Below, one piece after another: positions 10,147 to 62,316 of a stretch of DNA of 64,000 bases (its first letter is position 1; the number at the start of each line of letters is the position of its first letter). The notes beneath the pieces are model-generated. The model worked only from the letters and a program-made list of their open reading frames with translations, had not been told where the DNA came from and did not search any database. Location of the stretch: positions 64,001 to 128,000 of the forward strand of contig CANQQV010000003.1 of NCBI GenBank assembly GCA_947626095.1, written 5' to 3'. Both the position numbers and the translations under genes were made by a program. The stretch is from an uncultured Bacilli bacterium (GTDB lineage: Bacteria; Bacillota_I; Bacilli_A; RF39; UBA660).

Positions 10147-10153
10147 TTCTTTT
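10125..10153. terminator. Bidirectional terminator
   Basis: AAAAGAACTAG...CTAGTTCTTTT between convergent genes. Confidence 0.8.
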
Positions 10154-10364
10154 AATTATACATTTTTTTATTTAAATCTAAACCCTCTAATTGTAAAGCA
10201 ATCACCATACTTTTTATCTCAACATCATTAAAACCTTGTTCCTTTAAATCTTTACGTTTCAAAATCCATAAATCATTTACAGTATTAATTTTTGCTTCTT
10301 TTAATTTCTTAGTTAATTCAGGAGATAAATTTAATTTGCTTATCTGTTCATCAATATTTACCAT
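10152..10364 (-). CDS. Stand-alone RNA polymerase alpha-CTD-like protein
   Basis: ISKLNLS..L.K.AKINTVNDL...L.LEGLDL aligns with alpha-CTD [25 protein letters not shown]...LEELGLGL. Confidence 0.7.
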   Translation of the reverse strand: MVNIDEQISKLNLSPELTKKLKEAKINTVNDLWILKRKDLKEQGFNDVEIKSMVIALQLEGLDLNKKMYN

Positions 10365-10367
10365 TAT

Positions 10368-10859
10368 TTATTCCCCCTTTTCTTGTTCTGTAATAAAATC
10401 AATTACATATTTTTTACACTCATCATACGACATATCTAGAGCTATCCCTAATGTCGTATATAAATATTTTTCACTTAAATTAAAATAATTATTATCTTTT
10501 TCGGCAATCTTTTTTCCACAATTTAAACGATTTTGATTACGTATATATGTAGTTTTAATTATTTTAGCTAAATCCAAAGGATTTTGTGTACTTAATAATT
10601 CTTTATAAACATTCTCTAATGACTTTTCATCTGTCTTAATACACTTAACATCTTTTATCGCTTTAATAATATCCAGAGCTTGTTCTTTTGTTAAAATATT
10701 TTGGATATCTTTAGCATCTACTGGTACTTTAAGAGTTAACGATTCATCATTTACGGGAGTCAAAACGTAATAATCACGATCTTGAAAATACTTTTCTTTA
10801 ATATCCCTAACCTGACATACTTCTCTTTTATATAAAATATAATCATTTATTTTATACAT
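10368..10859 (-). CDS. CarD-family transcription factor
   Basis: YKINDYILY..VCQV..I, YYVL.P, LKVPVD N-terminal CarD/TRCF domain plus helical C-domain (GKK...D..Y...EK.LY). Confidence 0.85.
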   Translation of the reverse strand: MYKINDYILYKREVCQVRDIKEKYFQDRDYYVLTPVNDESLTLKVPVDAKDIQNILTKEQALDIIKAIKDVKCIKTDEKSLENVYKELLSTQNPLDLAKIIKTTYIRNQNRLNCGKKIAEKDNNYFNLSEKYLYTTLGIALDMSYDECKKYVIDFITEQEKGE

Positions 10860-10877
10860 AAAACCTCCCCTTTCCTT

Positions 10878-10959: not shown

Positions 10960-10962
10960 GTT

Positions 10963-11697: not shown

Positions 11698-11726
11698 ATT
11701 TTATTATACAAAATTAATATGGCCTT

Positions 11727-12545
11727 TTAAAGATTTTTCTCCCATTTCTTTTTAAGTAACGGTTTAATATCAATAACTACTGGTGATGGTAAAAGATCAC
11801 TAAGTTCACAAGCCATCTCTTGATAATTTACTTCACCAATTACTTTAGCTAAATACTCTAAAGCGCCAATAAAATCTTTTAAACTTATTCGTTTAGCTTT
11901 TCTTAATAAACAATAAGCAATTGTTAATCTTAAAGTCCTATTAATTTTATCATACAACTCATCTAATTGATTATCATCATTAATTTTTCTAGCAAACAAA
12001 GCATATATTTCTTCCCACTCTCTATCAGTTATCATAATTGGTGGTAAATTATAAACTCTATTTAATACATTATATTCAAAATTTATTCGTTTCTTGACAT
12101 CATCTATTGTTAAAAAGACAAATGGCTCTGGCCATAGTTCATCATCATTTCTTTTTTCCTTTGCCATATTCTTTATATCATCATTTAAAAAGTCATTACT
12201 ACTATAAAAAGAACAAGATATATTATAAGGATCATCATCATTTAATTTGATAATATTAGTATCATGACAATTTATTCTTTTACTTTCTTTTACTACATCC
12301 TTAACCATAACTGCTATAGCACAACCACTAACATACATTGTTCCAATAACTAATGGCGTTAAATCTTTAAGTAACAAACTTGCTAAAACTGCCATTGAAA
12401 AAGGCGCAAAAGCAATAAGTGCTTTCTTTTTATTCTCTTTATTTATCTTTTGCATATTAGCTTCCGTTTTACTAACTAAATCATCTAATTGCCAAAGATA
12501 AAGTTCTTCTGTTAATGTTCTAATCTCTCCATTATGTATTTTCAT
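11727..12545 (-). CDS. Hypothetical 2-TM protein
   Basis: 272-aa ORF with hydrophobic hairpin near the N-terminus. Confidence 0.7.
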   Translation of the reverse strand: MKIHNGEIRTLTEELYLWQLDDLVSKTEANMQKINKENKKKALIAFAPFSMAVLASLLLKDLTPLVIGTMYVSGCAIAVMVKDVVKESKRINCHDTNIIKLNDDDPYNISCSFYSSNDFLNDDIKNMAKEKRNDDELWPEPFVFLTIDDVKKRINFEYNVLNRVYNLPPIMITDREWEEIYALFARKINDDNQLDELYDKINRTLRLTIAYCLLRKAKRISLKDFIGALEYLAKVIGEVNYQEMACELSDLLPSPVVIDIKPLLKKKWEKNL

Positions 12546-12599
12546 CCCAATACCCTCTTTAGCAAAGATAATTTATCATAAATAAAAAGAATTAGCAAC

Positions 12600-13374: not shown

Positions 13375-13890
13375 TTAACTAGTTTTGAATTGAATAATAA
13401 TTCCTAGTACAAAAACTACTAAAACAACTATCGATAAAACATTACTACTCATTGTAATTAAAACTGGTAAATAAGCTTTAATAATTGCTGACCCAGCTAG
13501 TGAAGAAACTAAAATCATTATTGGTTTAATAAAGAAAGTCGCTAACATTCCTGCTAAAGCTGAAATAACTAATCTTACTACTAACATCATATTAGCATCT
13601 AACCCATTAATCTGGATATTTAAAGAGCCATATACTAAGTAAGCCACGGCAATTAATACGGCCAGCTTTTCTAATTTAAATCCTAAAGATCCTAGTACTA
13701 AACCCGCTACTATTTCTATAATAATATTAACTTGTTTACTTAAATCAAAATAAGTAAGAACATATTGAGCTACCATATACCCCATTGCAAACCAAGCTAA
13801 TATTATAATTAACTTTTGAATTTTAAAACCACTTGTACAAAGGGCTAATCCAATTAAAACCGCCCCAATCGCTAAAATATTATTATCCAT
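13375..13890 (-). CDS. DUF4203-like multi-TM protein
   Basis: IGLALCTSGFK, SSLAGS, GIIIQF. Confidence 0.7.
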   Translation of the reverse strand: MDNNILAIGAVLIGLALCTSGFKIQKLIIILAWFAMGYMVAQYVLTYFDLSKQVNIIIEIVAGLVLGSLGFKLEKLAVLIAVAYLVYGSLNIQINGLDANMMLVVRLVISALAGMLATFFIKPIMILVSSLAGSAIIKAYLPVLITMSSNVLSIVVLVVFVLGIIIQFKTS

Positions 13891-16495
13891 TTTTCTTACC
13901 TTCTTTTACTCTATATATTACTTTATAAACTTCAAACACTGCTATTACTATTAATGACAATAATAATAAATTAATTACTGTTTTAAATGGTAATGGTGCT
14001 ACCTTTAAGAATCTAGCTGTTAAAGGTATTTCAGCTATAACAACTTGTAATAAAATTGAACCAACAACCGTTACTAAAACTAAAGGATTATCTAGTAATG
14101 ACTCTTTAAACACCGTTCTTTTTTCACTACGACAATTTAAAACATTAACATTTTGAATAAATACCATTAACATCATAATAATTGCACGTGCTGTTGTTAT
14201 ATTAGTACCTCTATCCATAATATACTTCCATACTAAGAATACTGTTACACTTATTGTTATGCCTAAAATCATTACTTCGATCATTAGGTCTCTAGAAAAT
14301 AATGATTCTTTAGTATCACGTGGCTTTTCTTTCATAATCGCTTTTTCAGTTTTTTCAAAAGATAAAGCTATATCTTGCATTCCATCAGTTACAATATTTA
14401 ACCATAATAACTGAATAGCTACTAATGGTATATCATAACCAAAGGCAATTGAAAGTAAGAAGAATGCTACTTCTGCAAAGCCACAACCTAATAAGAATAA
14501 AGTTATTTTACGAATATTACTATAAGCAGTTCTTCCTTCTTCAATACCCGCTACTATTGAGGTAAAATTATCATCTGCCACAATCATTGAAGCAGTTTCT
14601 TTCGCTACATCCGTACCACTACCCATCGCAATACCTATATTAGCTGACTTAATGGCTGGTGCATCATTAACACCATCACCTGTAACAGCCACAAACTCCC
14701 CTTGTCTTTTTAATGAATTAACAATATCTAATTTATCCATAGGTGTTACACGGGAAAATACTCTTATATGTCCAACAAACTCATCAAATGCTTCTTCACC
14801 CATCTCACGGTATTTGGCGACATCTTTACCAGTTGCTACTTCTGAAGCATCTTTACATAAACCTAAATCTAAAGCTATCGCATAAGCCGTAAGTGGATGA
14901 TCACCTGTAATCATCATTACTTTAATTCCAGCATTTTTACATTCTTTAATTGAATCTTTTACTTCGACTCTAATTGGATCAATAAAAGCAACCATACCCT
15001 TAAAGTCTAACTTTTTAATATCTTCTTTACTCGTTCCTTTTACTTTACCATCAGCTATCGCAATTACACGATAACCCTTACCAGTTAAATCCTGATTTTG
15101 ATTATGATACTTTTGATTCTCTTCGGAAAAAGCCATAACTTTTTCTAAAGAGCCCTTAACTGTACAATATAGTTCATTATTCTTCTTATAAAAAACAGCT
15201 GAATATTGATTTTCTGACTCATAAGGAATAATCTCTTCTACTTCTGGTATATCATCTATTTTCATTTTCTTAGCTAAACTTAAAAAAGCTATATCTATTG
15301 AATCGCCAAATGATTCCCATTCATCGTCTTTTTTCTCTAAATGAGCTTCATTATTTAAGGCCCCTAATAATGCAATTTCATAAGCTTTATCCATATTAGC
15401 TTTATCTACTGCTGTAACTTTACCATTATCATTATATCCAGTTCCACTTATTTCGTATGTTGAACCATCTTTAGCTACAATCATTTTAGCTGTCTGTTCA
15501 TTCACGGTTAATGTCCCCGTTTTATCTGAAGCAATAACTGTACAACTACCTAATGATTCAACGGCATTTAATTTCTTTACAATAACATTCTTCTTAGCCA
15601 TTCGCTTAGAAGCAATGGTTAAAGCCATTGTTAAAGCAAGTGGTAATCCTTCTGGCATCGCTGATACTGATAAAGCGATAACACATAGAAATATCTCATT
15701 AGTTGGATATCCCTTAACTAATAAGATAACTGTTGTAATAATCGCAATTAAAACAATAATAATACTAATTTGTTTGGAAAACTTTTCTGTTCTAATCGTT
15801 AAAGGTGACTTTTCTTCTTTCGTATTAGTTACCTTATCAGCAATATGACCTATTTCGGTATTTGTTCCAATTGCTGTAACAATTGCATGTGCACGACCTG
15901 TTATAACTGCAGTTCCGGCATAAACCATATTAATACGTTCAGCTAGTGTTGCTTCCTTATTTATTTCTTCTGCAGTTTTAACTACTCCAACACTCTCTCC
16001 CGTTAAAGCTGACTCATCAACCTGAAAATTATGACATTCAATAATACGGGCATCAGCAGATATCTTTGTTCCACTTTCTAAAACAATAATATCGCCTACT
16101 GTTACTTCACTAGAATCAATTTCTATCTCTTTATTATTTCTAATTACTCTAGTTGTAACTTTAATCATATTAATTAGACTTTGTGCATCTTTACGAGCTT
16201 TCCATTCTTCAAAGGTTCCCATTAAGACATCAACTAAAATAATAAAGATTAAAGCAATCGCATCAACTACTTCATGAGCGACAAAAGATAAAATTACGGT
16301 CACTACTAAAATAATCTCAATTGGATTATAAAATTGCGAAATAAATATTTTAAAAATACTATCTTGTTTCGCTTGTGGTAGTTCATTTTTACCATATTTT
16401 TCTTGATTACTTTTAACTTGTTCTGAAGTTAAACCTGTCTTTTTACTTTTTAATTCTTTTAATACTTCATCTGTACTTTTAGCAAAATAATTCAT
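13883..16495 (-). CDS. P-type cation (Ca2+-type, P2A) ATPase
   Basis: TGES, PEGL, DKTGTLT, KGS, TGD, TGDGVNDAPA. Confidence 0.96.
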   Translation of the reverse strand: MNYFAKSTDEVLKELKSKKTGLTSEQVKSNQEKYGKNELPQAKQDSIFKIFISQFYNPIEIILVVTVILSFVAHEVVDAIALIFIILVDVLMGTFEEWKARKDAQSLINMIKVTTRVIRNNKEIEIDSSEVTVGDIIVLESGTKISADARIIECHNFQVDESALTGESVGVVKTAEEINKEATLAERINMVYAGTAVITGRAHAIVTAIGTNTEIGHIADKVTNTKEEKSPLTIRTEKFSKQISIIIVLIAIITTVILLVKGYPTNEIFLCVIALSVSAMPEGLPLALTMALTIASKRMAKKNVIVKKLNAVESLGSCTVIASDKTGTLTVNEQTAKMIVAKDGSTYEISGTGYNDNGKVTAVDKANMDKAYEIALLGALNNEAHLEKKDDEWESFGDSIDIAFLSLAKKMKIDDIPEVEEIIPYESENQYSAVFYKKNNELYCTVKGSLEKVMAFSEENQKYHNQNQDLTGKGYRVIAIADGKVKGTSKEDIKKLDFKGMVAFIDPIRVEVKDSIKECKNAGIKVMMITGDHPLTAYAIALDLGLCKDASEVATGKDVAKYREMGEEAFDEFVGHIRVFSRVTPMDKLDIVNSLKRQGEFVAVTGDGVNDAPAIKSANIGIAMGSGTDVAKETASMIVADDNFTSIVAGIEEGRTAYSNIRKITLFLLGCGFAEVAFFLLSIAFGYDIPLVAIQLLWLNIVTDGMQDIALSFEKTEKAIMKEKPRDTKESLFSRDLMIEVMILGITISVTVFLVWKYIMDRGTNITTARAIIMMLMVFIQNVNVLNCRSEKRTVFKESLLDNPLVLVTVVGSILLQVVIAEIPLTARFLKVAPLPFKTVINLLLLSLIVIAVFEVYKVIYRVKEGKKNG

Positions 16496-21221: not shown

Positions 21222-24200
21222 TTAGTCCTTATTCAAAACTTTTTTTCTTGCTGCAATACTTTTTTTTAAATAATCAAGATAATAATTACATTTATACTCA
21301 TTGCTTAGTAAATCATACTTATGATACTCAGCACTAAATATTTCTTCAATTTCATTTAATTCATAAATCGAATTAGTTTCATTAAGACGATTAATAACAA
21401 CACTTAATAACAAGTATATATCATATCTTAACGCTTCTTCTTTATTCACCTTACGATAAGCTGTATAATTATTTTCTAACTTCGTTAAGACTTTTTTAAG
21501 TAGATATGGTTCATACGTCATTTCATATTCTTTTAATAACTTATTAACACTTAATAACTCTTTTTTAGCTACTTTCTCTAAATCAATACTAATAATTGGT
21601 AAACCTTCTGGATGTCTCTTACTTCTAAACTCTAAACTTATATTAACTATTTGATTTAAATACATCTTATCATTTAAACGATTAGCTTTAACTAAGATAT
21701 AATCTGGTTCTATATTAGGTATATTATCATCGTTATAATTAGGTCGTACTCCATATTTATTTAAATACAAAGTATTATTATAATCCCTAGTTTGATCAAT
21801 TAAATTACTAACTGATGAATAATAATCTTTACTATTATCATCTATTTTATCTAAATAATAATTAGATACTTTAATAAGTCCTTCAGCTAATAAACCATTA
21901 TAACCAAATAAGAAATCCTTATCAAATACTAAATTATCTTTAGTTATTAAACTACAAGGTACTCCCTTTTCTCCTTCGTTTAATAACTTATGATAACTTT
22001 TAAAATAACTCTTGGTCTTTAAATAAGACTCTTCTAAATCTAAATTACATACTAAGTATAAGAAATCTTCTTTACTCTTATATATCGTTATCTCTTTATT
22101 ATAGAAATTAATTGTTGATGCTTTTAAATTATTATTTTTACTACGTAACTCATAATTATATATCTGACCATACATCTTCTTTAGTTTATACTCTAAGCGA
22201 TAACTTTCATCCATTGCTATAACTTTATAATCTCTATCTAATTCTTTTAATGATTCATTATCGGTATTAAGTATTTTATTTAAATTCGTTACGAACATAT
22301 ATTCTTCGTTATAGACATTAATATCTACAGAACTAACATCATACATTTTAACCATTAAACGTGCTTCTTCTAAAGTCAATTTAAAATGTTTTTGGATAAA
22401 ATAATCTTTAATATTATCTTCCGTCTTAATAAGATTAGTCAATTTATTCTCTGTTTCTTTCTCATAGTTAACTATCTCTTCATAGGTATGAGGTGCTTTT
22501 AAAACAATTGGTCTTAATAAAACTTCTTCATTCCTATAAAACCTAGGTATTAAATATAATAAATAATTTATTAAACTGTTTAATTCTTTTTTAGGTATTC
22601 GCTGATAATTAACACCATCTAATAATTTCGGCAAATTACCAAATCTTTTACGATTCTTACTATTAGTTACCATAACTAATATATCTAATACTCTATCTAA
22701 CGTTTCATCTCTATTTAATTCTTCTAAAGCATAATACAAAGTATTAATTAACATACTTGGATTTTGATAGTATTTACCAATTACAACTATCTTTTCTTCT
22801 AAAGCAGGATACTTAGTAATATAACTTAAAATACTTAGTTTTAAATCAACAATATAATCTTCAAAGATTCTAAAATCTATTGTATTAAGTAAATAAGCAT
22901 TATTATTTAATAACTTTTTATAAATATTATAGTATTTACTAGATAAAACTTTTTCGACTAATTCTTTAGTACAAAATTCCTTTTTACCATCATAATCTAA
23001 TTCTCTAATAATGTTAGTCAATAACTCTTTATCAAAATAATTATATTCTTTATTAAAATACTTAATTAGATCTTCGCGATCTTTAATTACATCACTTATA
23101 ATATGATAATCTTCTTTCGCATATTTAAATAAAATATCTATTACTTTAAAGTTACTTAATACTTGACTATTAAAACTAATATCTGTTTTAAGTAATAATT
23201 CTTTTATAACTGGTGCTTTTAACTTCGTTATTTCATTAATATTATTTAAATAATAACTAATAGCATATTCATCTAAATGATATGACTTTTCATTGACTAA
23301 TTCATTTCTAAGTTCATTACTATCATAAAAATACTTACGTTTACTTAGAGGCATATCTTTTAATAACATATTAAGTAATTTAGAGTCTTTAAACTCTTCA
23401 ACATTCGCCATTAATAATAAACGATCATCCATTGTAAATTTACCAGCTTTAAATAAATTATCTAACATACTATAATCTTTACTCTTTAAACTATTAACTA
23501 TTCTTGTACATAATTCTTTATTTTTAATAATATCTTTCTTATAACTACTATCTATACGACACAACTCGGTTAAATCTTTAATATTAAATCTATTTAATTG
23601 TTCAGTCTTTAAATCAAGACGTTCTTCATAATTTAAAGCTTTAATAAACTTAACATCATCAATAATTTCTAAATTTCTTAACAAAGCCCCGTAATAATTC
23701 TTATTACTATCCGCAATAACTTGTAATTTATCTAAAGGTAAATCCTTAATAATATCAAAGTAAGGATCTACAAATAAATTTTGTTCTTTAACTAATATTT
23801 TTTTTAGATAACAATATGGTAAACTTCTTAATATATAAATGTTCTTACTATTAATAACTATTTGTTCAACATTATCTAACTGTAATAAATCTTTTTGTAA
23901 TAACTTATCTGTATTCTTAACTAGATGTAATATAATATTATCTTTTGAATAACTAGCTAAAATACTATCTAATTTTTTCTTGGATAAATATTTAAATAAT
24001 GGACAATCAACAGCATAATTATTATCTAACTTAGTTAAATAAATTTTTAAAAACTCTTCATTATTAGCTAATTCTTCTACTTTCTCATAACTAGCTATAA
24101 AATCATTAATCGCTTTTAAATTATATAATTTTAAAATACTTAAATTATTCTTAATTTGTTCTTTAGTATCTTCCTTTAAAGTATTAAAACTAAGACCTTT

Positions 24201-36800: not shown

Positions 36801-36828
36801 ATATAACACCCCTATCATTTTCTAATTA

Positions 36829-48222: not shown

Positions 48223-48244
48223 ATAACCTCCTCTTTTCTATATA

Positions 48245-48652
48245 TTATTTACGATTACGATATGTTCCCCACCACTTAGGAATAATATCCATCATTTTAA
48301 GAACCTTATCTTTTTCTAAACTTTCTAAAACTTCAATATCTCCATAATTAGGATTTAATTCGAGCAAATATTCCAACGAACTTTCCGAAGGCATTATTAT
48401 TTCTTCCAATTCATTTAAAACAACAATTTTATCAATAACATATTCATGATCATTAAACATATTAATAATTGCACTTTTTTCTGCACTACAACTTATTATT
48501 GAATTAGAAGTAATACTACTTCCACTATATATTTTATTATTATGTCCCAAAATCGCACAAGATGTATTACCTGTCATTATATAATCAGATACTTCTTTAG
48601 AAACTAAATTCTTTTTAGCCGCTTCATAAAGGCTACCCCAAATACGTTCCAT
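48245..48652 (-). CDS. Cytidine deaminase-fold protein with Zn ligands lost
   Basis: LYEAAK, KIYSG, SAEKSAI (CAE expected), PSESS (PCGAC expected), IPKWW. Confidence 0.75.
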   Translation of the reverse strand: MERIWGSLYEAAKKNLVSKEVSDYIMTGNTSCAILGHNNKIYSGSSITSNSIISCSAEKSAIINMFNDHEYVIDKIVVLNELEEIIMPSESSLEYLLELNPNYGDIEVLESLEKDKVLKMMDIIPKWWGTYRNRK

Positions 48653-48712
48653 ATCACACCTTCTTACTTAATGTATTATGATAACATACGAATGATTATT
48701 TTACAAACCAGA

Positions 48713-49684: not shown

Positions 49685-49771
49685 AGTATCACACCCTACT
49701 ATAAATATATTATATCACAAGCTTTAACAACTTATGGTACTTATTTAAAAAAGTAAGTTTTAAACTTACTT

Positions 49772-51343
49772 TTACATTTGATAAAAATTAATTCTTATAT
49801 TGCGATTATGATCAGATAATAAAATTTCAATAAAATCATTTAATGATATTTCTAAATGAAAACTATGACGATAATCTTTAGCGCTATAAGCATCAAAAAC
49901 CATTAAAGAATTTTCACGATCATAGTCAAAATGACCAGTAATAATCGCTCTTTTAATATAATTCAATTTTGTCTTATTGATATTAGACTCATGTCTACTT
50001 TCATCTTTAGCATCATTCAATGCTTCACGGCGATACTTAATTTCCTTTACTAAATGCTCTAATTCTGCACAATCACGTGTAATTCCCACACTATTTTCAT
50101 TTAATAATTTTAAATTACTCTTTGGTATTAAACGCATATTATTTAAACGTTTATTAATACGTCGATTAACACCTACAACCTTTTTATTTAATTTCGATAA
50201 ATCACTTATAATACTTTTATATTCAGGAGTTTCGTAATCAATAATGCTAGGTTTTAACTCCCCTAAATCTAATTGTGAATAATTAAATAAACGCTGTAAA
50301 TTATCTTCATCATATATGTAATTAATATAAAAATTAGATATGGCAAAAGCATTTAAAATATCTCCACGCATTGTACTATCAAGAGCAAATACTTTACGAC
50401 ATTTATCTAAAGGATAATTTTCTTTATAAGCATGTACTAAACTTCTCAATAATTCATAAGTATTTATTAAATGACGTTTATTTATATTAGCTTTGCTATT
50501 ATAACACTTAAATGTTTCTAAAATAAACTCATCTAATACTTTATCATTATCATGTTCATTATAAAGCTTTTCAATTGTTCCTTTATCTTCTTTATTAAAA
50601 AGAGCAATCTTTTTATTTATTGATAAACAAAAATGTTCCTTTGACAACTTACTATTAAGTTCCTGTAACTTCTTAAAATTATACCCTTCAATATTTGCTA
50701 ACATATCAATTAAATATTTTACATCCTGATATGATAACAACTTATTATCTTTACGACTTACTGTATATTCATATAACACTATATCCTTAATAAAAGTATT
50801 TAATGATTGACTTCTATCTTCAGGAATAGTTACCGTATAAAAAGAATATGAATTATGATCTAACGCTAAATTAATATTATTATTTACTGAAGTAATTAGG
50901 AAATTAGCAAATTCAACTAACCATCCAGAATCTACAACAATACCATTATCAAACTTAATAGTATTATTATAATTACATACATATTCACCATTAGCTAAAG
51001 CACTCATTAAATAATCTATTAAACTCTCTTCTGTTTTAATAGAAGGAACTTGCATTTTAAAATAACTAATACCTTTTACTTTATCCATATAATATTTAAG
51101 TTCTTTTTTATCTAACTTAGCATAATCATCCTTAGTTAAATGTTCACTATAATTCATGATTTGTAAAGAAGTATATAATAAATCTAATGCAATATAATCA
51201 AAATCGGTAATAAATTTCAAATTCTTACTGCGATTATTTAAAATTTTTTCAATATATAAACCTAAATATTCATTAGATTTAGTCATATTAATAAAAGTAT
51301 TTAGCTTTGAAATATTTGCTACTAGCGCATTCCCCTTTTTCAT
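49772..51343 (-). CDS. Hypothetical 523-aa protein, possible degenerate double-HEPN
   Basis: LMSALANGEY and IKRAIITGHF resemble IRNxxAHG motifs; coiled coil before the second. Confidence 0.7.
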   Translation of the reverse strand: MKKGNALVANISKLNTFINMTKSNEYLGLYIEKILNNRSKNLKFITDFDYIALDLLYTSLQIMNYSEHLTKDDYAKLDKKELKYYMDKVKGISYFKMQVPSIKTEESLIDYLMSALANGEYVCNYNNTIKFDNGIVVDSGWLVEFANFLITSVNNNINLALDHNSYSFYTVTIPEDRSQSLNTFIKDIVLYEYTVSRKDNKLLSYQDVKYLIDMLANIEGYNFKKLQELNSKLSKEHFCLSINKKIALFNKEDKGTIEKLYNEHDNDKVLDEFILETFKCYNSKANINKRHLINTYELLRSLVHAYKENYPLDKCRKVFALDSTMRGDILNAFAISNFYINYIYDEDNLQRLFNYSQLDLGELKPSIIDYETPEYKSIISDLSKLNKKVVGVNRRINKRLNNMRLIPKSNLKLLNENSVGITRDCAELEHLVKEIKYRREALNDAKDESRHESNINKTKLNYIKRAIITGHFDYDRENSLMVFDAYSAKDYRHSFHLEISLNDFIEILLSDHNRNIRINFYQM

Positions 51344-51407
51344 ATTCTCACCTATTATTTATTATAACATAGTAATTAAAAAGATTAAATAAAAATTATT
51401 TAATCTT

Positions 51408-54400
51408 TTATAATTTAAGTCCTTGACTAGGCTCTTCCATTCCAAAGTCATATTCTTCAACTAAATCAGTACGATTAGAATCAAGACTCTTTGATGCACG
51501 AATTTGTAGTTTATAATCTCTTAAATCAAAATTCTCTTTAGGCGTTTTAAATGCTAAATCAATAGTATCATTATCTACAATAACTGTTTTACGACTACGA
51601 TAATTATCTTTAGCTACTAACGCCAAACGACCATTTATCTTTCTAATTCTTTCATACAAATCTCTTCTAAGTCTAATATTAACACCGTTCTTAATTGCTG
51701 TAATAGTCATCGAATCAACATCTTTAACAATTGCTTCATCTTTACTAACTTTAACTACTTTACTATTAGGATTTAAGAAAATATGTGGTAACTTAACTTT
51801 TGCATTGTTATATTTCTTTTTATTAGAAACTGGCTCTGTTCCTATTATCGAAATAAATTCAAAATCACTATTACTATCTAATGATGGAATAAATGGTGCT
51901 TTTACTCTACTAAATAAACCACTCAACAATTCATCATTCTGTTTAACTAAATCATCAATACTATTTAAATCTAAATTATTAGTACTCATTTCATTAGACA
52001 ATCTGTGAGAAATTGCTCTTCTAATAACCAAGATAAATCTAACTAATTCATTAATTCTTTTATTTAAAGAAGAATCATTTCTATCTAACAACTCTAAAAC
52101 TTCATTCGCCGAAACACTAATCAATTGATTACTAAAGACTAAGTATTGATCAATTCTTGAATAATATTCGACATTGAGTAATTCTGAAGCCGAAGATACA
52201 TCGCCTGCTAAGGAACGATTAAATTTCTTAACATAAGCTAAACGAAGATTTAGCAAATCATTCTTATATCTTACAATATCATTTAAATTAGAATCAGCTT
52301 TTAGTTCACTATTTATAATATTATTAATAAACTTACTATCAGAAATTGATACCATACCTGTTGATTCATAAAAACTATTAACAGCATTAACTTCTTTAAC
52401 TTTAGTATTAACCTCATTAATTATTGCTAAATATAAACTATGATACTCTTCTACAGTTTCAGGAATAACTAAAGGTCTATAAGCAACAGATGTAAATACT
52501 GGCAATCTATCATTTTCTTCATTACCTGATCCACTAGGTAAATGTTCAGATCTTATAGATTTAGTCAAGTTCTTAGCAGCAATTAATTCATCACTAAGCA
52601 TTTGACGTTTATAAGTCTTCATTCTTTCATTTGCAAATGTTATCGTTAAAACGTCATCTTCAAAACTCATTTTAACCCCATTCTGCATATTTAACGGATT
52701 ATTAATTAAAGTATTTAAATATTCACATAATACTCGATAATCATGCTGATAATCTTCAGTATTTAAATATTCTGCCGAAGCATTTCTTAAATTATTACAT
52801 TCAGGCATGACATTCAATCTGGCTATATTAATAGCCAAATAGTTCATAATATAATCGCATAAATCTCGACCTAAAATATTATAAATCTCATTTTCAAATT
52901 GATTTTCATACCTTTGAATAATACTTTCTTTTTCAATTGTACTAAGCTCAGAATAAGCTGAATCAGTTAATAGCTTTGTAATATTAGCATCAGCTACATC
53001 CATACTTTCATGATCAAAAGTAAAATTAGTTAAATAATTTAATACTTCATCATAATATATTTTAACAATTCTCTTCGCTTCAGCTTCAAATCTTTCCAAC
53101 TGTTCATTTTTTACAGCAACAGTTAAGGCATCAAGATTACTTGAAGGTTCATCTAACTTCTTTGGCTCTGCTAAATGTACACTAACTAAGTTTCTTTTAT
53201 TAGGATCATCATCATCTAAACTATAAGGATAATTTGTCCAAATACGATAATCCCCTTCTGGGTTTAATACATTTTCTCTTAATTCATAAGAAAAACGTGC
53301 ATCACTAATATTTCTTTCCACTTCTTCCAAACTATATTCTGGATGTTCCTTAGTCATAACAGTTCTTAAAGCATCACAAATAGTTGCAATAGGAATATCA
53401 CGTGTTGTTGCACCACGATACATTAAATCCTGTAATCTATCAAATAATCTATCAAATGAAAAAACACGTTCTTCGACATTATAATCAGCATTATATCCCA
53501 TTAATTCCAACATTCTTGGTATGTAAAATAATGGTGAATAATCAAAGCCATAAAATCTATTATAAGGACTAGCAGAATTAATAGCTAAACGTTGATAATC
53601 ATCCCTAGAAATTACTAAACACTTAGGAATAGTTAAATATTCCACTGTATTTGAATTATCAATATCCGTTTTACATCTCATTTTATTAAGTGGTGACATC
53701 CCAAAGAAATAAAATCTATATAAAGGATCATTTGTTGGATCAAAAGTACATAATTGATCTAAATGATATTTATCATCTTTTAAACGAGCTATATTTTCTA
53801 CGTGATTAACAGTACTATATCTAAAGCACTTAATATCACATCTTCTAAGCATTGCTGAAAATAAAGTAGCATAACCAACACAAACTATCGTACTCTTATC
53901 TAAAATTACACGATCTAAATCACGAGCATTTCGTGGTCGATTTTCATCTTCAGTATAAATATAATTTTCTCTTAAATAACATTGAGCAGAAAGCATAGCT
54001 TCTAATGGTGAATAATTGTTATCTTTTACTTTCTTTTCAAAAGTTTCAAGACTTTTTAAAACTTGAACATATCCTTTAGCACCAACAGTACCACTTCCTT
54101 CTAATTCAGAGCGATAACAAACATTACGACTATATGGTTCATGACAAGAATCATTAATCAAATCTTGACATGTATGATAAATAACCATTATCTCATTTGG
54201 CATGCTTTCTAATTTAGCATAATCTTCACTATTATCATGTAAAGGATTACTTAAAACACTTATTTTTACTTTAGGATCAAGTCCTGCTTTAACAAACTTA
54301 GATAAAATATCACTATAGCCACTTTGATTATAAAACCTAATATTCAAACTAGCACTATAATAAGGACTAATTTTCAAAACATCGTCTAAATGATTTTCCG

Positions 54401-55019
54401 TAACAATTTTTTTAACTTCTTCATCACTTAAATCTCTAGTTATAAAAAAATCACAAGTAGGACTATGATGAGTTTTTACATCTTTACTATCATTTCTCAC
54501 AAAAAGATTATTTTCTTCATCAATCGGCATCTGCTCTACTCTAGCAACCGACTTGTTAGCGGCAATTTCTAGAAAATTTCCCCTCTTTAATTTATCATAT
54601 GTTTCTTGATCAAGAACATAATCATCGCCCACTATTCTTAATGCAAAAGCATTAGCTTGGCTCTTCTTTATAAGTGCTTCAATAACTGCATCATTTTTTA
54701 AAAAACGATAATCAATTGCAAAAGTCGGACCAAATTGTGCTTCGTTAATAATATCAATTAAATATTGTAAGACATATTGGTTTCTTTCAGATAATGAATC
54801 AAGTTCACCATAAAAACCACTACTATATCTAAAAGAAATAACTTGTCTACCTAAATCATCATCTTCACTATTAATATAATTTCCAACAACTTGTACAGGA
54901 TTATCTAAACTTTCTTCCGTAAATAAACATGAATCTAAAAAAGCTCTATCCATAGAAAAGCCATTAAATCCCCATAATGCACGATATGTTTGATCCAATG
55001 CTTCATAATCATAATCCAT
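51408..55019 (-). CDS. Giant (1203 aa) protein with a central transglutaminase-like Cys-His-Asp domain
   Basis: YSPLE, IVCVGYATLF..L, HVENI, FDPT. Confidence 0.8.
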   Translation of the reverse strand: MDYDYEALDQTYRALWGFNGFSMDRAFLDSCLFTEESLDNPVQVVGNYINSEDDDLGRQVISFRYSSGFYGELDSLSERNQYVLQYLIDIINEAQFGPTFAIDYRFLKNDAVIEALIKKSQANAFALRIVGDDYVLDQETYDKLKRGNFLEIAANKSVARVEQMPIDEENNLFVRNDSKDVKTHHSPTCDFFITRDLSDEEVKKIVTENHLDDVLKISPYYSASLNIRFYNQSGYSDILSKFVKAGLDPKVKISVLSNPLHDNSEDYAKLESMPNEIMVIYHTCQDLINDSCHEPYSRNVCYRSELEGSGTVGAKGYVQVLKSLETFEKKVKDNNYSPLEAMLSAQCYLRENYIYTEDENRPRNARDLDRVILDKSTIVCVGYATLFSAMLRRCDIKCFRYSTVNHVENIARLKDDKYHLDQLCTFDPTNDPLYRFYFFGMSPLNKMRCKTDIDNSNTVEYLTIPKCLVISRDDYQRLAINSASPYNRFYGFDYSPLFYIPRMLELMGYNADYNVEERVFSFDRLFDRLQDLMYRGATTRDIPIATICDALRTVMTKEHPEYSLEEVERNISDARFSYELRENVLNPEGDYRIWTNYPYSLDDDDPNKRNLVSVHLAEPKKLDEPSSNLDALTVAVKNEQLERFEAEAKRIVKIYYDEVLNYLTNFTFDHESMDVADANITKLLTDSAYSELSTIEKESIIQRYENQFENEIYNILGRDLCDYIMNYLAINIARLNVMPECNNLRNASAEYLNTEDYQHDYRVLCEYLNTLINNPLNMQNGVKMSFEDDVLTITFANERMKTYKRQMLSDELIAAKNLTKSIRSEHLPSGSGNEENDRLPVFTSVAYRPLVIPETVEEYHSLYLAIINEVNTKVKEVNAVNSFYESTGMVSISDSKFINNIINSELKADSNLNDIVRYKNDLLNLRLAYVKKFNRSLAGDVSSASELLNVEYYSRIDQYLVFSNQLISVSANEVLELLDRNDSSLNKRINELVRFILVIRRAISHRLSNEMSTNNLDLNSIDDLVKQNDELLSGLFSRVKAPFIPSLDSNSDFEFISIIGTEPVSNKKKYNNAKVKLPHIFLNPNSKVVKVSKDEAIVKDVDSMTITAIKNGVNIRLRRDLYERIRKINGRLALVAKDNYRSRKTVIVDNDTIDLAFKTPKENFDLRDYKLQIRASKSLDSNRTDLVEEYDFGMEEPSQGLKL

Positions 55020-55468
55020 TATAAATCACCGCTTTCTAAAAATAAATTATCATCTATCACATCAATACCATTTTGTATCAGCAATTCAGCAGTAATTCCA
55101 TTACCATCAACCAAATTAGAACTAAACGTTCCATCATATATTTTACCATATCCACAAGACGGACTTTTAGCTTTCAAAATAGCTTTTTTAATTCCTAATA
55201 ACTGACATAATCTTAAAGTTTCGTTAGCTCCTCTTACAAAATTATCCGTGACATCGACACCTTTTTCATTAACTACCTTTCCATCTCTTACTTCAGCTGC
55301 CAATCTTGGTGTCGTAAGTCCACCAACAATTTCCGGGCAAAAAGGAATTATCTCCCTTCCTTTTAATTTAGTAACTAACTCTTCCTTATAATTATTCTTC
55401 CCATTATACTTGCAATTAACTCCTAATAAACAAGCACTTACTAATACTTTTTCTTTCATAAAAAACAA
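55019..55468 (-). CDS. DUF523 / 2-thiouracil desulfurase (TudS-like) Fe-S protein
   Basis: VSACLLG.NCKYNG, CPEI.GGL..PR, LKAKSPSCG. Confidence 0.92.
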   Translation of the reverse strand: MFFMKEKVLVSACLLGVNCKYNGKNNYKEELVTKLKGREIIPFCPEIVGGLTTPRLAAEVRDGKVVNEKGVDVTDNFVRGANETLRLCQLLGIKKAILKAKSPSCGYGKIYDGTFSSNLVDGNGITAELLIQNGIDVIDDNLFLESGDL

Positions 55469-55930
55469 TTACAATCTAATTTCTTTTTTAATCATCTTTA
55501 CTACCATTCTAAATAAAAGATAATATAAAAGAATCCATACAACAATTGACAAAGATATTAATAAATACATCTCTTTTTGTATACACAATATAATATCTAA
55601 AATCATAATAGAAGATAATAAAGCAGCAAAAATACCTATTAAAGTATACTTACAAGTTCTATTAACATAAGAAATTCCCTTTTTCAATGTATTATTTATT
55701 TCACTATTATCATTACGACCAAATATCATTGATATTATAACAAAAACAATTTTAATAGCATTAACTACCGTTAAAACCACCAATAAAAATAATAATGGAA
55801 TAGTAATAAACAAATAGAAAAAATGTAAATCAAACAAATACTTATAAATTACTACTATTCCTGCTCCATAAAATGCAATACTCAAGATGTAAACTAATAA
55901 ACTAAGTCCACGATGTTTTTCTAAATTCAT
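55469..55930 (-). CDS. Hypothetical 4-TM protein
   Basis: Four hydrophobic segments; abuts the DUF523 gene. Confidence 0.72.
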   Translation of the reverse strand: MNLEKHRGLSLLVYILSIAFYGAGIVVIYKYLFDLHFFYLFITIPLLFLLVVLTVVNAIKIVFVIISMIFGRNDNSEINNTLKKGISYVNRTCKYTLIGIFAALLSSIMILDIILCIQKEMYLLISLSIVVWILLYYLLFRMVVKMIKKEIRL

Positions 55931-55976
55931 ATTATCACCCTATTTTATACTATATAAATCTATTATAACATACTTT

Positions 55977-56432
55977 TTATAAATGTTTTATTAAAGATTC
56001 ATATAAAATATCAACTATATAATTAGATGGTTCTAATTCGTACTTTTCTATCAACTCTTCAATAATTCGATCATTATACTCCGTATCTAAATATTTAAAT
56101 ACTGATTCTTTTTTATTTTCTAAATCAACTAAGTAATTTTCAGTATACAAATTATCAATAATAAGCAAAGGTAATTCACCTACCCATTCTTTAAACGCCG
56201 TTAATATTTCTTTGGTACTATCTTTATATACAAATGACTCTTTATCATAATCAATTAATTTTTTAAAATCATCTAAAGCAATTAAATCTTCACGTAAGCG
56301 ATAATCAAATCGATCTAATAAATTTAAGCCCTTTAATTTAATCGCAGATAACTGAATAATATCACCTTTTTCTTTCTTAATCGCTGTCGGAATTATTTCT
56401 AATATAATGTATTCATCTTTTAATAAATCCAT
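55977..56432 (-). CDS. DnaQ/PolC-type exonuclease fold lacking DEDDh residues
   Basis: YIILEIIPT..DIIQLSAIKLK..DRF..FKEWVG aligns with YVVFDVETT..IIELAAVKVK..DKF..FREWIG; start after GAGGTG. Confidence 0.72.
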   Translation of the reverse strand: MDLLKDEYIILEIIPTAIKKEKGDIIQLSAIKLKGLNLLDRFDYRLREDLIALDDFKKLIDYDKESFVYKDSTKEILTAFKEWVGELPLLIIDNLYTENYLVDLENKKESVFKYLDTEYNDRIIEELIEKYELEPSNYIVDILYESLIKHL

Positions 56433-56516
56433 AAATTTCCACCTCATTTCCAATATTATACTATAATTTTTAATTTAATTTTATCATAATATGTTTTATA
56501 ATTATCTAGAAAGGTT

Positions 56517-58761: not shown

Positions 58762-58863
58762 CCCCTAAATAATTAACTGTATTATAATATGAAACATTTT
58801 ATTAATTTATAAGTTATGGCTATTTTGGAAAAATAATAAACAAAAAAGTACTCTAAACGAGTA

Positions 58864-60462
58864 CTAATATATTTTTTCTACTTCAATAATATCTTTATCT
58901 GTCTCATAGTAACCGATTTTTATTTTATCTCCTACTTCAAGTAGAGGTAAACGATCACTTAATGAAATAGAAGCCTTATAAGTTTTATTTTCTGTTGTTA
59001 AATAATAATGTGTATAACCACCAATTATTCCAGTTTTAATCTTACTAATAGTTATTTCTTCAATCTTTAATTCATCATCACTAGCTTCTTTTTTGATAGC
59101 TTTTAAATAATTATCTTTAGCTACTTCAATTCCTTTTGAAGCATCAGTAACAACTACTTTTTGATAGTCTTTTACATCAACAAATCCATACATTTTAACT
59201 AAACCACTAGAATCTTTTAAACTTACTAAGTAAGTAGGATTTCCTTTTAAATTAATTAATAATGGGAATGTTGAAGTATATCCCATATCTTGGACTTGAC
59301 CTTCAGCACTACTCATTGCACTAAATTCTTCCGCTCCTGGAACATTATAGTATGTTGTTTTACCAGTTCTCATATTCGTTAAAATAAATCCTAAATTAGA
59401 TTCATCGCTAACTACACTAGTTATTCCGGTATATAAATAAATATCATCATTCATCGCTAAATAATTATAACCTTCTGTTGTATTTACAACATTCTTTTGT
59501 CCAAAAATACTATTAAAGAAACCATTTTTGTAGTTGCCCCAATCGTCAACTTGTTCAATTACTAATGATGCTGAATAAGCAATATCGACCCATGAAGGTA
59601 TATCTTCTTTTTTATATTTAGTTGATTCACCTGTAACTGGATCAAAAATAATAACACCAGTTACTTTAGCTTTTAAACCAACTGCTGTATAACTAATAGT
59701 CGGTACAATATAATAAGGATTTCCCTCATTATCTATCTCAAAAGAAATATTGCCAAAATTAGTAGTTGGATAAGTAAATCTTAATTTACGTTCTAACTTT
59801 TCATTAAATAAAGCACTAGATGAATACTTCATTCCTTTTTTTAAACGCGTTAATTTAGACTCGCCTGTTACACTATCAACGGTAATATAACCGACAATTC
59901 CCTCTTTACGATTTGTAAACCATTTAATTGCATCAGCATACTCTAATGGCGTTACTCTTAAAATAGAATCATTATAATTAATTTGCGTATATAAATTAGA
60001 AACACTAAACTGACTTACTAACTCACTTACTTGGCCCATTACACGATCACCTAAAACTTCTGAAGAAGCACGATCAAGTAAAGGCAAATGATTAAAATTA
60101 ACTTCAGCAATATCTTCAGTAAAATTACCACTCTCATCAACACTAATTCTTTGTTGATAACTCTTAGCATTAAATAATGGAGAACAAATAAAATTAACAA
60201 TTAATATTAAAACAAATACTGAACCTATTCCTAAAATGGCATAAATCATTGTATTAGGTAATTGATAATTTACTTTTTTACCTTTTTTAAATAATTCCAC
60301 ACTATTAAAACTACTCAAACTATCTAAAATAGCATATATGAAAACTAAGAAAGCAATAAAGGCATAAAAACCAAAGTTATTTAAATTAATAGCTGGCAAA
60401 GTAATATAATAAATTATAAAACCTAAAACTAAAGTAATTAAAATATTTATTATTTTTCTCAT
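58864..60462 (-). CDS. Conserved Firmicute membrane protein (3 TM plus large extracellular domain)
   Basis: LPAIN, TPLEY, FEIDNEGNPY, YTGITSV.SDESNLGF, GAEEFSAM.SAEG. Confidence 0.8.
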   Translation of the reverse strand: MRKIINILITLVLGFIIYYITLPAINLNNFGFYAFIAFLVFIYAILDSLSSFNSVELFKKGKKVNYQLPNTMIYAILGIGSVFVLILIVNFICSPLFNAKSYQQRISVDESGNFTEDIAEVNFNHLPLLDRASSEVLGDRVMGQVSELVSQFSVSNLYTQINYNDSILRVTPLEYADAIKWFTNRKEGIVGYITVDSVTGESKLTRLKKGMKYSSSALFNEKLERKLRFTYPTTNFGNISFEIDNEGNPYYIVPTISYTAVGLKAKVTGVIIFDPVTGESTKYKKEDIPSWVDIAYSASLVIEQVDDWGNYKNGFFNSIFGQKNVVNTTEGYNYLAMNDDIYLYTGITSVVSDESNLGFILTNMRTGKTTYYNVPGAEEFSAMSSAEGQVQDMGYTSTFPLLINLKGNPTYLVSLKDSSGLVKMYGFVDVKDYQKVVVTDASKGIEVAKDNYLKAIKKEASDDELKIEEITISKIKTGIIGGYTHYYLTTENKTYKASISLSDRLPLLEVGDKIKIGYYETDKDIIEVEKIY

Positions 60463-60483
60463 ATAGTATCACCTACTTATATT

Positions 60484-62316
60484 CTACCATACTTTTAATA
60501 ATTTAGAATTATTATCCGTAAAATATCTTTGATATCTTAAAGCTTGATAACCGACCATATTAGCTGCTTCTAATAACATCTTATCATCGATATCACTAAG
60601 TATTGGATTTTCTTTTAATATAACTACTAACTTATCCCAATCTAAACTAAGATATTCACTATTAGATAAGATAATTGTTTTTATTATTTTACCTAGTTCT
60701 AATAATTTCATTTCTTTTTCCGTTTTATGTACAATATCTAATGAATTACCTTTTATTAAAGCAAAATCAACTGAACTACGAAGAACTAAATATTTATTAT
60801 ATAATGACCAATAATCAATCTCCTTCACTTCATAATGTATACCTTCAATATAATAACCATTTTCTAATATATAATTTATAATATCTAATAAATTCATTGT
60901 ATATATCTTTTCTTTTAAAGTTATTATTAAATAATTAAATAATGTATTATACTTATTAGCTACATCTTCTTTATAAAGAGAAAGATAATATTTAGATAGA
61001 TTTTCCCTAGTTTCTATTTTATTTGTAAATTCTTCTAATTCTGTAAGATTATTGACTACATAAGCTTTATTATCTATAACTATTATCAATCCTACATCAT
61101 CATTAGAATTATCGAACTTAATAAACTTAGCCTCAAAATTATCTACTAATCTTTTTAATAATTTATTAACATTATCATCTTCAATACAATGCTCAACATT
61201 AACAATTAACGAAACCATTTTTTGTAAAAAATCTAGTTTCCCTTGTGCTTTATAAAATTCGTAATTTGCAAGATAGAAATTTTTCATATATAAAAGACGA
61301 TGACGACCATTTTTTATTTCATATTTACCATTGAATTTTTTGACAACAAAATCATAAGTATCCTTTATTTTTTGAATATTAACATATGATGAAGAACTTA
61401 TCTTACTTCTTGTCCCATTAAAATCCAACGCTCCATAAATTAAATCAACATCATAATCAGTATCACCCGTAAATTCTGAATTACTATAAATAAAATCCAT
61501 ATTTATTGGTAATTCTTCTAAACGTGAATAAGTAACGTAATATCTATTTTCTTCTTTTTTAGTTTCCTGCGTCTCCTCTTTTGCTTTTTTCTTATTACAT
61601 ATCTGTTCAATAGTATACCAAGTAGGAAGTTCAATATACGTTAAATTGAAAGGTAATATTTTATCTTTAACTAATTTCCTCGGTATTACAACAATATTTG
61701 GTTTTTGCCCAATAAAAGCATTAAACCATTTTTTGGCTTTCCTTACAATAAAAGCTCCTGTTTTTTCTGGTACATTCTCAAGTCTTTTTTCTAAAATTGC
61801 ATAATAATGACTAACTTCATCAACCGTATAATCTTGTTCTTCTGTTTGTGGTACTTTTAAAATGCTTTTATAAAATATTTTTGGAAAAGTAAATGCCGTT
61901 ATTAGCGCCTTATCTAAATCACTAAATAACTCTCGTTCTTCTTTACTTGCTACACCATTAATTGTTACTTCTCTTTCTATTTGCTTTAATTCAAAAAGAT
62001 ATTTCAAAGAATTTTTATTAAAATCAATACCCTTTTTTTGTATATCTTTTTTTAAATATTCGTTAGTTACATAAAAAATATAATTATTATCAAATTCACT
62101 AGGTTTTATTATCTCCAATAAATGCTTTACATCCTTACTAACAATAAAATTCTTACTATTTAAATAATAATTTATTATTAAGCTAAGATTAGATATAAAT
62201 CGTGCAACATCATTATTTCCATAATCACACAAAGAAACTAAAAAATTTTCATCTTTTAGTAATTCATTAATTATTTTAACTCTTTGTTTTAAATTTTTCT
62301 TAAGTGCTAATTTCAC
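60484..62316 (-). CDS. Hypothetical 610-aa protein with ParB/Srx-like motif and possible degenerate ART-like N-domain
   Basis: YEIKNGRHRL; YIFYVTN...IQKKGI. Confidence 0.7.
   Translation of the reverse strand: MKLALKKNLKQRVKIINELLKDENFLVSLCDYGNNDVARFISNLSLIINYYLNSKNFIVSKDVKHLLEIIKPSEFDNNYIFYVTNEYLKKDIQKKGIDFNKNSLKYLFELKQIEREVTINGVASKEERELFSDLDKALITAFTFPKIFYKSILKVPQTEEQDYTVDEVSHYYAILEKRLENVPEKTGAFIVRKAKKWFNAFIGQKPNIVVIPRKLVKDKILPFNLTYIELPTWYTIEQICNKKKAKEETQETKKEENRYYVTYSRLEELPINMDFIYSNSEFTGDTDYDVDLIYGALDFNGTRSKISSSSYVNIQKIKDTYDFVVKKFNGKYEIKNGRHRLLYMKNFYLANYEFYKAQGKLDFLQKMVSLIVNVEHCIEDDNVNKLLKRLVDNFEAKFIKFDNSNDDVGLIIVIDNKAYVVNNLTELEEFTNKIETRENLSKYYLSLYKEDVANKYNTLFNYLIITLKEKIYTMNLLDIINYILENGYYIEGIHYEVKEIDYWSLYNKYLVLRSSVDFALIKGNSLDIVHKTEKEMKLLELGKIIKTIILSNSEYLSLDWDKLVVILKENPILSDIDDKMLLEAANMVGYQALRYQRYFTDNNSKLLKVW

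Follow-up and report, generated by a model that had tools for sequence, protein, structure and literature searches.

A 64,000-nucleotide stretch of the genome of an uncultured Bacilli bacterium (the window; positions 64,001 to 128,000 of contig CANQQV010000003.1, here G000:C3:64001-128000) carries six genes for diverged relatives of homotetrameric cytidine/blasticidin deaminases, of the PolC DEDDh exonuclease domain, of type II P-type ATPases, of membrane thioredoxins, of the C-terminal domain of the RNA polymerase alpha subunit RpoA (alpha-CTD) and of TspO. We propose, with a probability of roughly 0.7, that the window contains several separate pseudoenzyme-type genes, i.e. diverged family members that lack the residues for chemistry or ligand binding and that are kept by purifying selection for other roles. 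The initial annotation of the window had instead described a single window-wide set of intact enzyme homologs that appear catalytically dead. The cases were traced among the ~58 open reading frames (ORFs) of the window by motif scan, small-ORF listing and family scans (Pfam, NCBIfam), and were followed through the window genome (G000; an assembly of 1.6 Mb in 34 contigs, 91% complete with 7.9% contamination), 26 other genomes of the genus and 10 sister genera.

The deaminase-like protein (135 aa; 48245-48652, minus strand) matched TIGR01354 over residues 31-126 with E = 2.6e-5 and 24.5 bits, which does not reach the cutoff of 113.65, and PF00383 gave no match at E<=1 at this locus. The annotated change of PCGAC to PSESS was borne out: PSESS lies at residue 88, the protein reads SAE...PSESS, and all three zinc-ligand cysteines are replaced (C to S, and PCxxC to PSESS). 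By contrast, active-type relatives, found in G002, G003, G006 and other families, read MCAE...PCGAC and end in a PxWWG tail; one of them scored 35.8 bits on PF00383. In whole-genome searches the gene was present in 23 of the 26 other genus genomes, and with the window query no ortholog was detected in the 10 sister genera. At least two of the three zinc ligands are gone in 22 of the 23 syntenic orthologs. In a tree, the syntenic genes formed one clade (support 100/98), within which the ortholog of G015, with all three cysteines, was sister to the 22 zinc-less sequences (support 85/86). This topology is compatible with a single loss of the zinc ligands inside the genus. An intact cdd gene of the same genome, with CAE and PCGYC, is located on contig 9; its product and the deaminase-like protein share 28% identity, over 47 aa only. 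The deaminase-like protein might serve as a zinc-free subunit that binds nucleosides or nucleotides, or that oligomerises.

The exonuclease-like protein is encoded by an ORF reaching to 56453 on the minus strand; from the ortholog alignment and a ribosome-binding site before M8, translation probably begins at M8 (position 56432), which gives a stand-alone protein of 151 aa (55977-56432). NCBIfam models for PolC and 3'-5' exonucleases matched it at E ~2e-4, and it matched the exonuclease domain of PolC from G000 with E = 3.7e-7 and 24% identity. Moreover, an hhalign comparison with 12 PolC exonuclease domains from the same genome family gave a probability of 96.7 (E = 4.5e-10, 119 columns), and a profile of 19 orthologs, searched against PDB sequences at E<=10, returned three matches, all of them PolC or DnaQ. 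The hhalign alignment confirmed the annotated replacement of DxE by EII in a DnaQ/PolC exonuclease: at ExoI, D-x-E has become E-I-I, with E12, I14 and P15 invariant in the 19 sequences, and the ExoII Asp is replaced by T97, which is likewise invariant in all 19. In the ExoIII (H-x4-D) region the profile alignment stops at residue 127 and a C-terminal 'VDxLYES' segment could not be placed. The intact PolC of G000 carries DTETTG and HNARFD, and PF00929 detected PolC alone in this genome, not the exonuclease-like protein. Orthologs were found in 16 of the 26 genus genomes and in two of the 10 sister genera, the other matches in the genus being PolC itself. In a large protein collection the family comprised 1375 clusters at E<=0.001, and no Pfam domain was recorded among the 120 clusters listed. 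The protein may act as a non-cleaving factor that binds nucleic-acid ends or the replisome. As a separate observation, the matches to PolC, including that at G000:C20:18585-19010, indicate a PolC frame of ~1929-1950 aa in the genus compared with ~1450-1650 aa outside the genus, in its sister genera and in other families, i.e. the replicative polymerase PolC of the genus has ~400-500 additional residues.

The P-type-ATPase relic is a membrane protein encoded by an ORF of 407 aa (25629-26852, minus strand); the ortholog alignment and the ribosome-binding site make it likely that the start shifts to its residue M5 at 26840, giving a protein of ~403 aa (25629-26840). Its sole significant Pfam match was Cation_ATPase_C (PF00689; E = 3.2e-7, 30.7 bits against a cutoff of 27.3). 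The window also encodes an intact Ca-type P-type ATPase, the active family member (870 aa, DKTG at residue 324; 13883-16495, minus strand), and a profile of 23 orthologs of the relic matched residues 629-860 of this pump, i.e. the end of the P domain together with M5-M10, with E = 7.3e-15; pairwise, the two proteins share 23% identity over 139 aa. Otherwise the ortholog profile retained only faint collinear traces of the pump, namely an 'AGIkV' segment and M3/M4. No A domain, N domain or phosphorylation motif was detected in Pfam scans of the relic (E1-E2_ATPase, Hydrolase and Cation_ATPase were absent). DKTG is missing, and the aligned segment, 'TKTIVTNI', is without Asp in 23 of 23 orthologs. 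Thus, the initial annotation was right that DKTGT is lacking and wrong that the protein is full-length: judged by its alignable parts, it is a derivative of half the size rather than a dead pump of full length. Because no A, N or Hydrolase domain was detected and the DKTGT position has no Asp, it cannot run the phosphoenzyme cycle, and it may instead form a six-helix membrane module without ATP-driven transport. The gene is present in 24 of the 26 genus genomes; it shares 4 nt with the MYG1 gene that follows it and was flanked by MYG1 in all 15 other loci examined.

The thioredoxin-like protein (295 aa; 31555-32442, minus strand) is membrane-anchored and has ADAYS instead of (W/A)CPWC, with DAYS at residue 138 where its paralogs have CPWC; at the cis-Pro position it still has TP. 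Two shorter paralogs of this kind are encoded in G000, with WCPWC and YCPWC, and these matched PF00085 below the cutoff (E = 1e-3 and 0.023), whereas the window protein itself had no Pfam match. When its profile was compared with the PDB, most matches were to chains of thioredoxin fold (1zma, tryparedoxins and thioredoxins), and they were weak (E 0.13-2.6). Among 24 long orthologs with a Lys-rich tail, 11 have CxxC, four CxxS, one xxxC and eight no Cys, and CPWC is present in 7/7 short sequences of the paralog type. Only G005 and G010 have a counterpart of the ADAYS of the window protein, in the form ADPYS. Thus, the annotated change from CxxC to DAYS is correct for the window protein, and its fixation, on which the initial annotation had let the claim depend, is contradicted by the 11 orthologs with CxxC. 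We conclude from the alignment that the motif is lost in the G000/G005/G010 clade and independently elsewhere, and that the constraint on it is relaxed, with repeated loss while the gene, which is present in 24 of the 26 genus genomes, stays under selection. The protein may have a redox-independent extracytoplasmic role in binding or as a chaperone.

The two remaining proteins belong to families that are not enzymes in the ordinary sense, so that 'catalytically dead', the annotated term, is not applicable here. The alpha-CTD-like helix-hairpin-helix protein (70 aa; 10152-10364, minus strand) passed the cutoff of PF03118 (25.5 bits against 23.8, profile positions 12-49 of 67). In the motif annotated as SVR changed to SPE it does read LSPE, and at the position of the 'SVR' Arg, presumably the residue of alpha-CTD that contacts DNA, no Arg is found in 17 of 17 aligned orthologs. 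The gene occurs in 17 of the 26 genus genomes. Its upstream neighbour, at a spacing of 3 nt, encodes a CarD/TRCF-RID-domain protein (163 aa; 10368-10859, minus strand; PF02559, 27.9 bits), and the pair was found side by side in 9 of the 16 further loci inspected, which suggests that the two genes (10152-10859) form a putative RNA-polymerase-associated module. RpoA of G000 is encoded elsewhere in the genome. The alpha-CTD-like protein could be a protein-contact module acting alongside the CarD-like RNA-polymerase binder encoded next to it.

The TspO/MBR-like membrane protein (111 aa; 5952-6287, plus strand) scored 24.0 bits on PF03073 (23.9 in a repeat scan) against a cutoff of 24 and covered profile positions 43-143 of 145. 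The annotated lack of Trp holds for 21 of 21 orthologs; the protein, however, falls short of the complete five-helix domain, and its gene lies outside the range 10152-62316 over which the set had been placed. In related genomes, TspO proteins that are full-length and contain Trp can be aligned with it. A normal TspO of 151 aa is encoded on the same contig, and pairwise similarity between the two was not detected. The gene is present in 20 of the 26 genus genomes. We suggest that the protein may be a three-helix membrane protein without porphyrin or Trp chemistry.

All six genes are intact ORFs with Shine-Dalgarno-like sites, as the initial annotation had it, and an intact member of each of the six families was found in the G000 genome, i.e. 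the search for active paralogs that the annotation had proposed was positive throughout. The ratio of nonsynonymous to synonymous substitution rates (dN/dS), calculated with NG86 against the closest species, was 0.02-0.03 for the TspO-like gene, the most conserved of the six, ~0.08 for the exonuclease-like gene, 0.14-0.15 for the deaminase-like gene (against G005 and G010), ~0.17 for the alpha-CTD-like gene, 0.24-0.28 for the thioredoxin-like gene and 0.23-0.29 for the ATPase relic, so that the six span 0.02-0.29; these ratios are rough, because dS is near saturation (0.65-2.4). Together with matches to them in 17-26 of the 26 other genus genomes, the ratios agree with the annotated view that the genes are not decaying. 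Identity to G005 is 84% for the deaminase-like and 82% for the exonuclease-like protein, compared with 80% for PHP and 83% for PriA, and on such comparisons the conservation of the six relics equals that of the genuine enzymes encoded nearby. Fixation of the motif loss holds for five genes, the thioredoxin-like gene being the exception; the expectation of fixed substitutions therefore stood for all but this gene. The enzymes nearby score well on their own families (DraG 233.8 bits, MYG1 171.4, TudS 152.2, Fhs 748.8 and PHP 41.0); the DraG gene (8760-9707) is, like the TspO-like gene, outside 10152-62316.

These data also bear on whether the resemblances could be artefacts of low-complexity, AT-rich coding, rich in Phe, Ile, Leu, Asn and Lys, or the genes recently broken pseudogenes. 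The G+C content of the window is 22-32%, and several scores are at or below their cutoffs (24.0 against 24 for the TspO-like protein, 24.5 against 113.65 for the deaminase-like protein, and no direct Pfam match for the thioredoxin-like protein), which speaks for such an origin. However, homology holds at the profile level or through chained comparisons, intact ORFs occur in up to 24 species, dN/dS values lie well under 1, and TGA, which terminates 93 of the ~1029 long ORFs of G000, is a normal stop; therefore, the ORF boundaries under table 11 hold. Recoding of TGA was considered and rejected: in the three TGA-flagged matches inspected (in G011, G021 and G016), the TGA precedes the actual start codon. 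In total, dN/dS and the hhalign result for the exonuclease-like protein appear to largely refute an origin by artefact or recent decay, which we consider very improbable.

Several points weigh against the proposal that the relics are non-catalytic paralogs retained for other roles. In addition to the near-saturated dS, the label 'inactive' is given on the strength of motif loss; AE, and with it the Glu of CAE, persists in 22 of the 23 syntenic deaminase-like orthologs; the exonuclease-like protein keeps the invariant acidic residues E12, at the first ExoI position, D63, E109, D141 and E145; direct support for a thioredoxin fold in the window protein is weak; and duplication within the lineage is something we infer, because pairwise similarity between relics and intact members is very low. 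Residual or altered chemistry in the deaminase-like and exonuclease-like proteins is possible. Accounts in a review (PMC10211241) include pseudoenzymes with 'migrated' residues and others with new transferase activities, and some of the relics could in the same manner still be enzymes, using migrated or alternative catalytic residues or carrying out new chemistry on the old scaffold. The retained Glu and the five acidic residues fit this possibility, as does the presence of CxxS, a form still able to react, in four of the thioredoxin-like orthologs. Against it, the zinc ligands of the deaminase-like protein are all gone, two of the three aligned DEDD carboxylates have become Ile and Thr, the ATPase relic is without a detectable A, N or phosphorylation domain, and the motif of the window thioredoxin-like protein has no Cys. 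On balance, we think it unlikely that some of the relics still work as enzymes.

The six genes are not one unit, because they are unlinked, are scattered over 50 kb and have motif losses of different depths; in this respect the idea of a window-wide set fails. The losses also differ in age: the exonuclease relic reaches family-wide, into two sister genera, the deaminase loss occurred within the genus, and the thioredoxin loss of the window protein is restricted to a small clade. The deaminase-like and exonuclease-like genes lie in a run of eight co-directional genes (47365-56453) with gaps of -1 to 87 nt, which comprises the genes for the exonuclease-like protein, a DUF4389-like membrane protein, TudS, a transglutaminase-like protein of 1203 aa, proteins of 523 aa and 323 aa, the deaminase-like protein and PHP; the two relics may share one transcript. 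The 323-aa protein (48713-49684, minus strand), encoded upstream of the deaminase-like gene, is membrane-anchored and without known family, and in 17 of the 23 further loci inspected a homolog of it adjoins the deaminase-like gene.

The initial annotation had also proposed that the lineage systematically repurposes folds typical of toxins and defence systems (deaminase, nuclease, ADP-ribosyltransferase (ART) and HEPN) as decoys, immunity proteins or sensors, and had listed a double HEPN and two ART-like domains as tentative cases. A PADLOC search with 16 unexplained ORFs gave no match for 13 of them, two matches at E 0.006-0.011, and a single one below E = 0.001, a weak match to Csx1. The latter concerns a membrane protein of 272 aa (11727-12545; E = 3.1e-4, 18.3 bits), is probably due to chance and is the sole HEPN-related trace. 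No HEPN family match was found in Pfam, NCBIfam or PADLOC, and no ART family match in Pfam or NCBIfam scans of the window. The ORF of 610 aa (60484-62316, minus strand) was taken as one of the tentative cases because the range of the annotated set ends exactly at its start, 62316. It encodes a lineage-specific multidomain protein that is present in 10 of the 26 genus genomes, with only 50-54% identity in the nearest species, and that was modelled from nine sequences with a pLDDT of 82.8. A wide structural search (VIA) with the model listed 50 rows; 10 of these, for residues 76-240, belonged to the ART superfamily, with Z of 4.5-7.3, under the advised trust level of ~8; these were 9ld3_A, an ADPR complex (the best, Z 7.3, rmsd 3.2, 72 residues), Tpt1, TreX, pertussis-like toxins, Scabin and LT. 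The ART-like part has three predicted strands only, and the alignment shows no conservation of a candidate Glu in the final strand. One of the annotated ART-like cases thus probably lies in this ORF, with weak fold support from the model, and neither the second ART-like domain nor the 'double HEPN' could be assigned to any ORF of the window.

For residues 264-380 of the 610-aa protein, five rows of the same search were of Srx/ParB type (best 6ky4_A, Z 6.1, rmsd 3.6, 78 residues; again under ~8). Foldseek with the whole model returned nothing at E<=0.001 and many rows for ParB, Noc, KorB, sulfiredoxin and SbnI, all at E>=0.27. The likeness to ParB/sulfiredoxin and ADP-ribosyltransferase folds is, in other words, supported by modest model scores only. 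N336-G337-R338-H339-R340 (NGRHR), which we take to be the nucleotide motif of ParB/Srx proteins, is invariant in the nine sequences of the family, and from this the ParB/Srx-like domain looks functional rather than dead. A G-D-x-x-Y-D-x-D-x-x-Y-G segment (residues 284-295) is likewise invariant, and the helices at the C-terminus are winged-helix-like. A wider search with region 60-400 gave seven clusters, none with a Pfam domain. The conserved 523-aa protein (49772-51343, minus strand), modelled as a candidate for the 'double HEPN' (pLDDT 88.7), matched only a coiled-coil hairpin at residues 370-450 and weak rows of JetA/SMC type. Profile searches of PDB sequences with the 610-aa and 523-aa families gave chance-level rows only. 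No HEPN row was obtained for either of these two modelled ORFs, which does not in itself exclude the fold.

In favour of a repurposing of toxin and defence folds, the 610-aa ORF pairs a weakly ART-like region with a ParB/Srx-like domain and is patchily distributed and fast-evolving, as conflict genes often are, and an HTH_3 protein and surface proteins are encoded nearby. The deaminase-like and exonuclease-like genes, by contrast, are in stable, genus-wide synteny with PriA, PHP and TudS and not in variable islands, and no adjacent toxin partner was found for them in the loci examined. Moreover, the ATPase, thioredoxin, alpha-CTD and TspO cases, four of the six, are non-conflict folds. With PADLOC weak and the synteny of a housekeeping kind, the annotated toxin, defence or immunity interpretation finds no footing here: judging from these searches and gene neighbourhoods, nothing links the six-gene set to toxins or defence, and we regard systematic repurposing of conflict folds as improbable.

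Nearly all genes of the window are on the minus strand, and their content is housekeeping and envelope-related: PriA, DnaB/DnaI loaders, Fmt, Fhs, HU, SpoIVA, SpoVIF, sortase B, glycosyltransferases and the Ca-type P-type ATPase. Full-length SpoIVA (35322-36818; 344 bits on the ATPase domain) and SpoVIF (40857-41099) occur in this 1.6-Mb genome, which may be unexpected for such a reduced lineage. The two proteins encoded on either side of priA (42810-44021 and 46457-47347) both have an N-terminal T4SS-pilin-like membrane segment, which is fused to a Peptidase_C39_2 domain in one and to a CHAP domain in the other. Finally, an ORF of 1142 aa (21222-24650) has no Trp and no family match in Pfam, NCBIfam, PADLOC or ESM Atlas, where look-ups for it and for the 610-aa ORF gave no usable match; it is conserved beside MYG1 genus-wide, with 42-69% identity over the parts within the fetched loci.

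Pseudoenzymes are charted well in eukaryotic signalling and poorly in bacteria. Under the reading that we prefer, of separate pseudoenzyme-type paralogs, an extra copy of a family, arising by duplication or acquisition, would lose its chemistry while the intact member keeps the original function, and the copy would be retained. That they occur together in the window may reflect the lineage, uncultured gut Bacilli with small, AT-rich and fast-evolving genomes, where relics of this type are easy to recognise. A bolder proposal is that the 151-aa exonuclease-like protein represents an undescribed, widespread, non-catalytic binder of the replisome or of nucleic-acid ends, with at least 1375 clusters, and that the genus keeps dead relatives as 'prozyme'-like partners that regulate the active enzymes, such as a zinc-less deaminase subunit and, in the membrane, the pump relic; we hold this to be doubtful. 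The relics are ordinary, independent pseudoenzyme-type paralogs from unnamed families. A narrow literature search found general pseudoenzyme reviews and a polymerase survey and no published description of these particular families, which is not proof of absence. Such a datable set of dead relatives in one small-genome gut lineage offers natural experiments on why a fold outlives its chemistry: a loss of zinc ligands across at least 22 species, a family-wide dead copy of a proofreading domain, a pump cut down to its membrane half and a thioredoxin motif that is repeatedly being lost. It also draws attention to families without a name that automatic annotation would either leave as 'hypothetical' or mislabel as working enzymes; in the source records, members of the deaminase-like family are already labelled 'cytidine deaminase' and one exonuclease-like cluster 'DNA polymerase III alpha subunit'.

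Compared with known systems, the deaminase-like protein resembles homotetrameric cytidine deaminases and blasticidin-S-type deaminases in its length of ~135 aa and in being collinear with the family profile over positions 24-119, and it has in common with active relatives of the same genus the AE of CAE and the C-terminal (P)xWWG tail. It differs from the TIGR01354 and PF00383 deaminases in its replaced zinc-binding cysteines, in a score far under the cutoff and in belonging to a separate syntenic clade that is zinc-less in 22 of 23 members. The exonuclease-like protein is like the DEDDh domain of PolC and DnaQ (PF00929; PDB 2p1j, 8h18 and 9qpc) by hhalign and by PDB profile matches, and unlike it in standing alone, in E-I-I at ExoI, in Thr for the ExoII Asp, in an ExoIII region that does not align and in its silence to PF00929. 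The ATPase relic follows type II P-type ATPases of the PMR1/SERCA kind, such as the window pump, from the end of the P domain through M5-M10 and departs from them in its half size and in the absence of the E1-E2_ATPase, Hydrolase and Cation_ATPase domains and of the DKTGT Asp. The thioredoxin-like protein is similar to thioredoxin-like proteins with a membrane anchor, and also to tryparedoxins and thioredoxins; among solved chains, 1zma ('bacteriocin transport accessory protein') comes closest by name. As in the two CPWC paralogs, its motif follows a beta-strand ('VIYFGYA..'), and the cis-Pro segment and the order of the domains are the same; set against these known systems, it has no Cys in its motif, a long Lys-rich cytoplasmic tail, a transmembrane anchor and no score that reaches a curated cutoff. 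The alpha-CTD-like protein resembles the RNA polymerase alpha-CTD (PF03118) in a helix-hairpin-helix match above the Pfam cutoff and differs from the domain in RpoA in being a stand-alone protein of 70 aa, without the SVR Arg and paired with a CarD-like gene, and the TspO-like protein has lost the first third of TspO/MBR (PF03073) and has no Trp, compared with six in the TspO encoded by the same genome. Inactivated DnaQ-like domains have been described in Pol I and in some PolB enzymes, and a stand-alone dead copy of PolC type is not among the cases in the sections concerned (PMC12926913). In trypanosomatids, dead paralogs that regulate active partners are known cases, as summarised in two reports (PMC5201418, PMC3663545), and the pseudoenzyme reading of the window genes fits these regulators.

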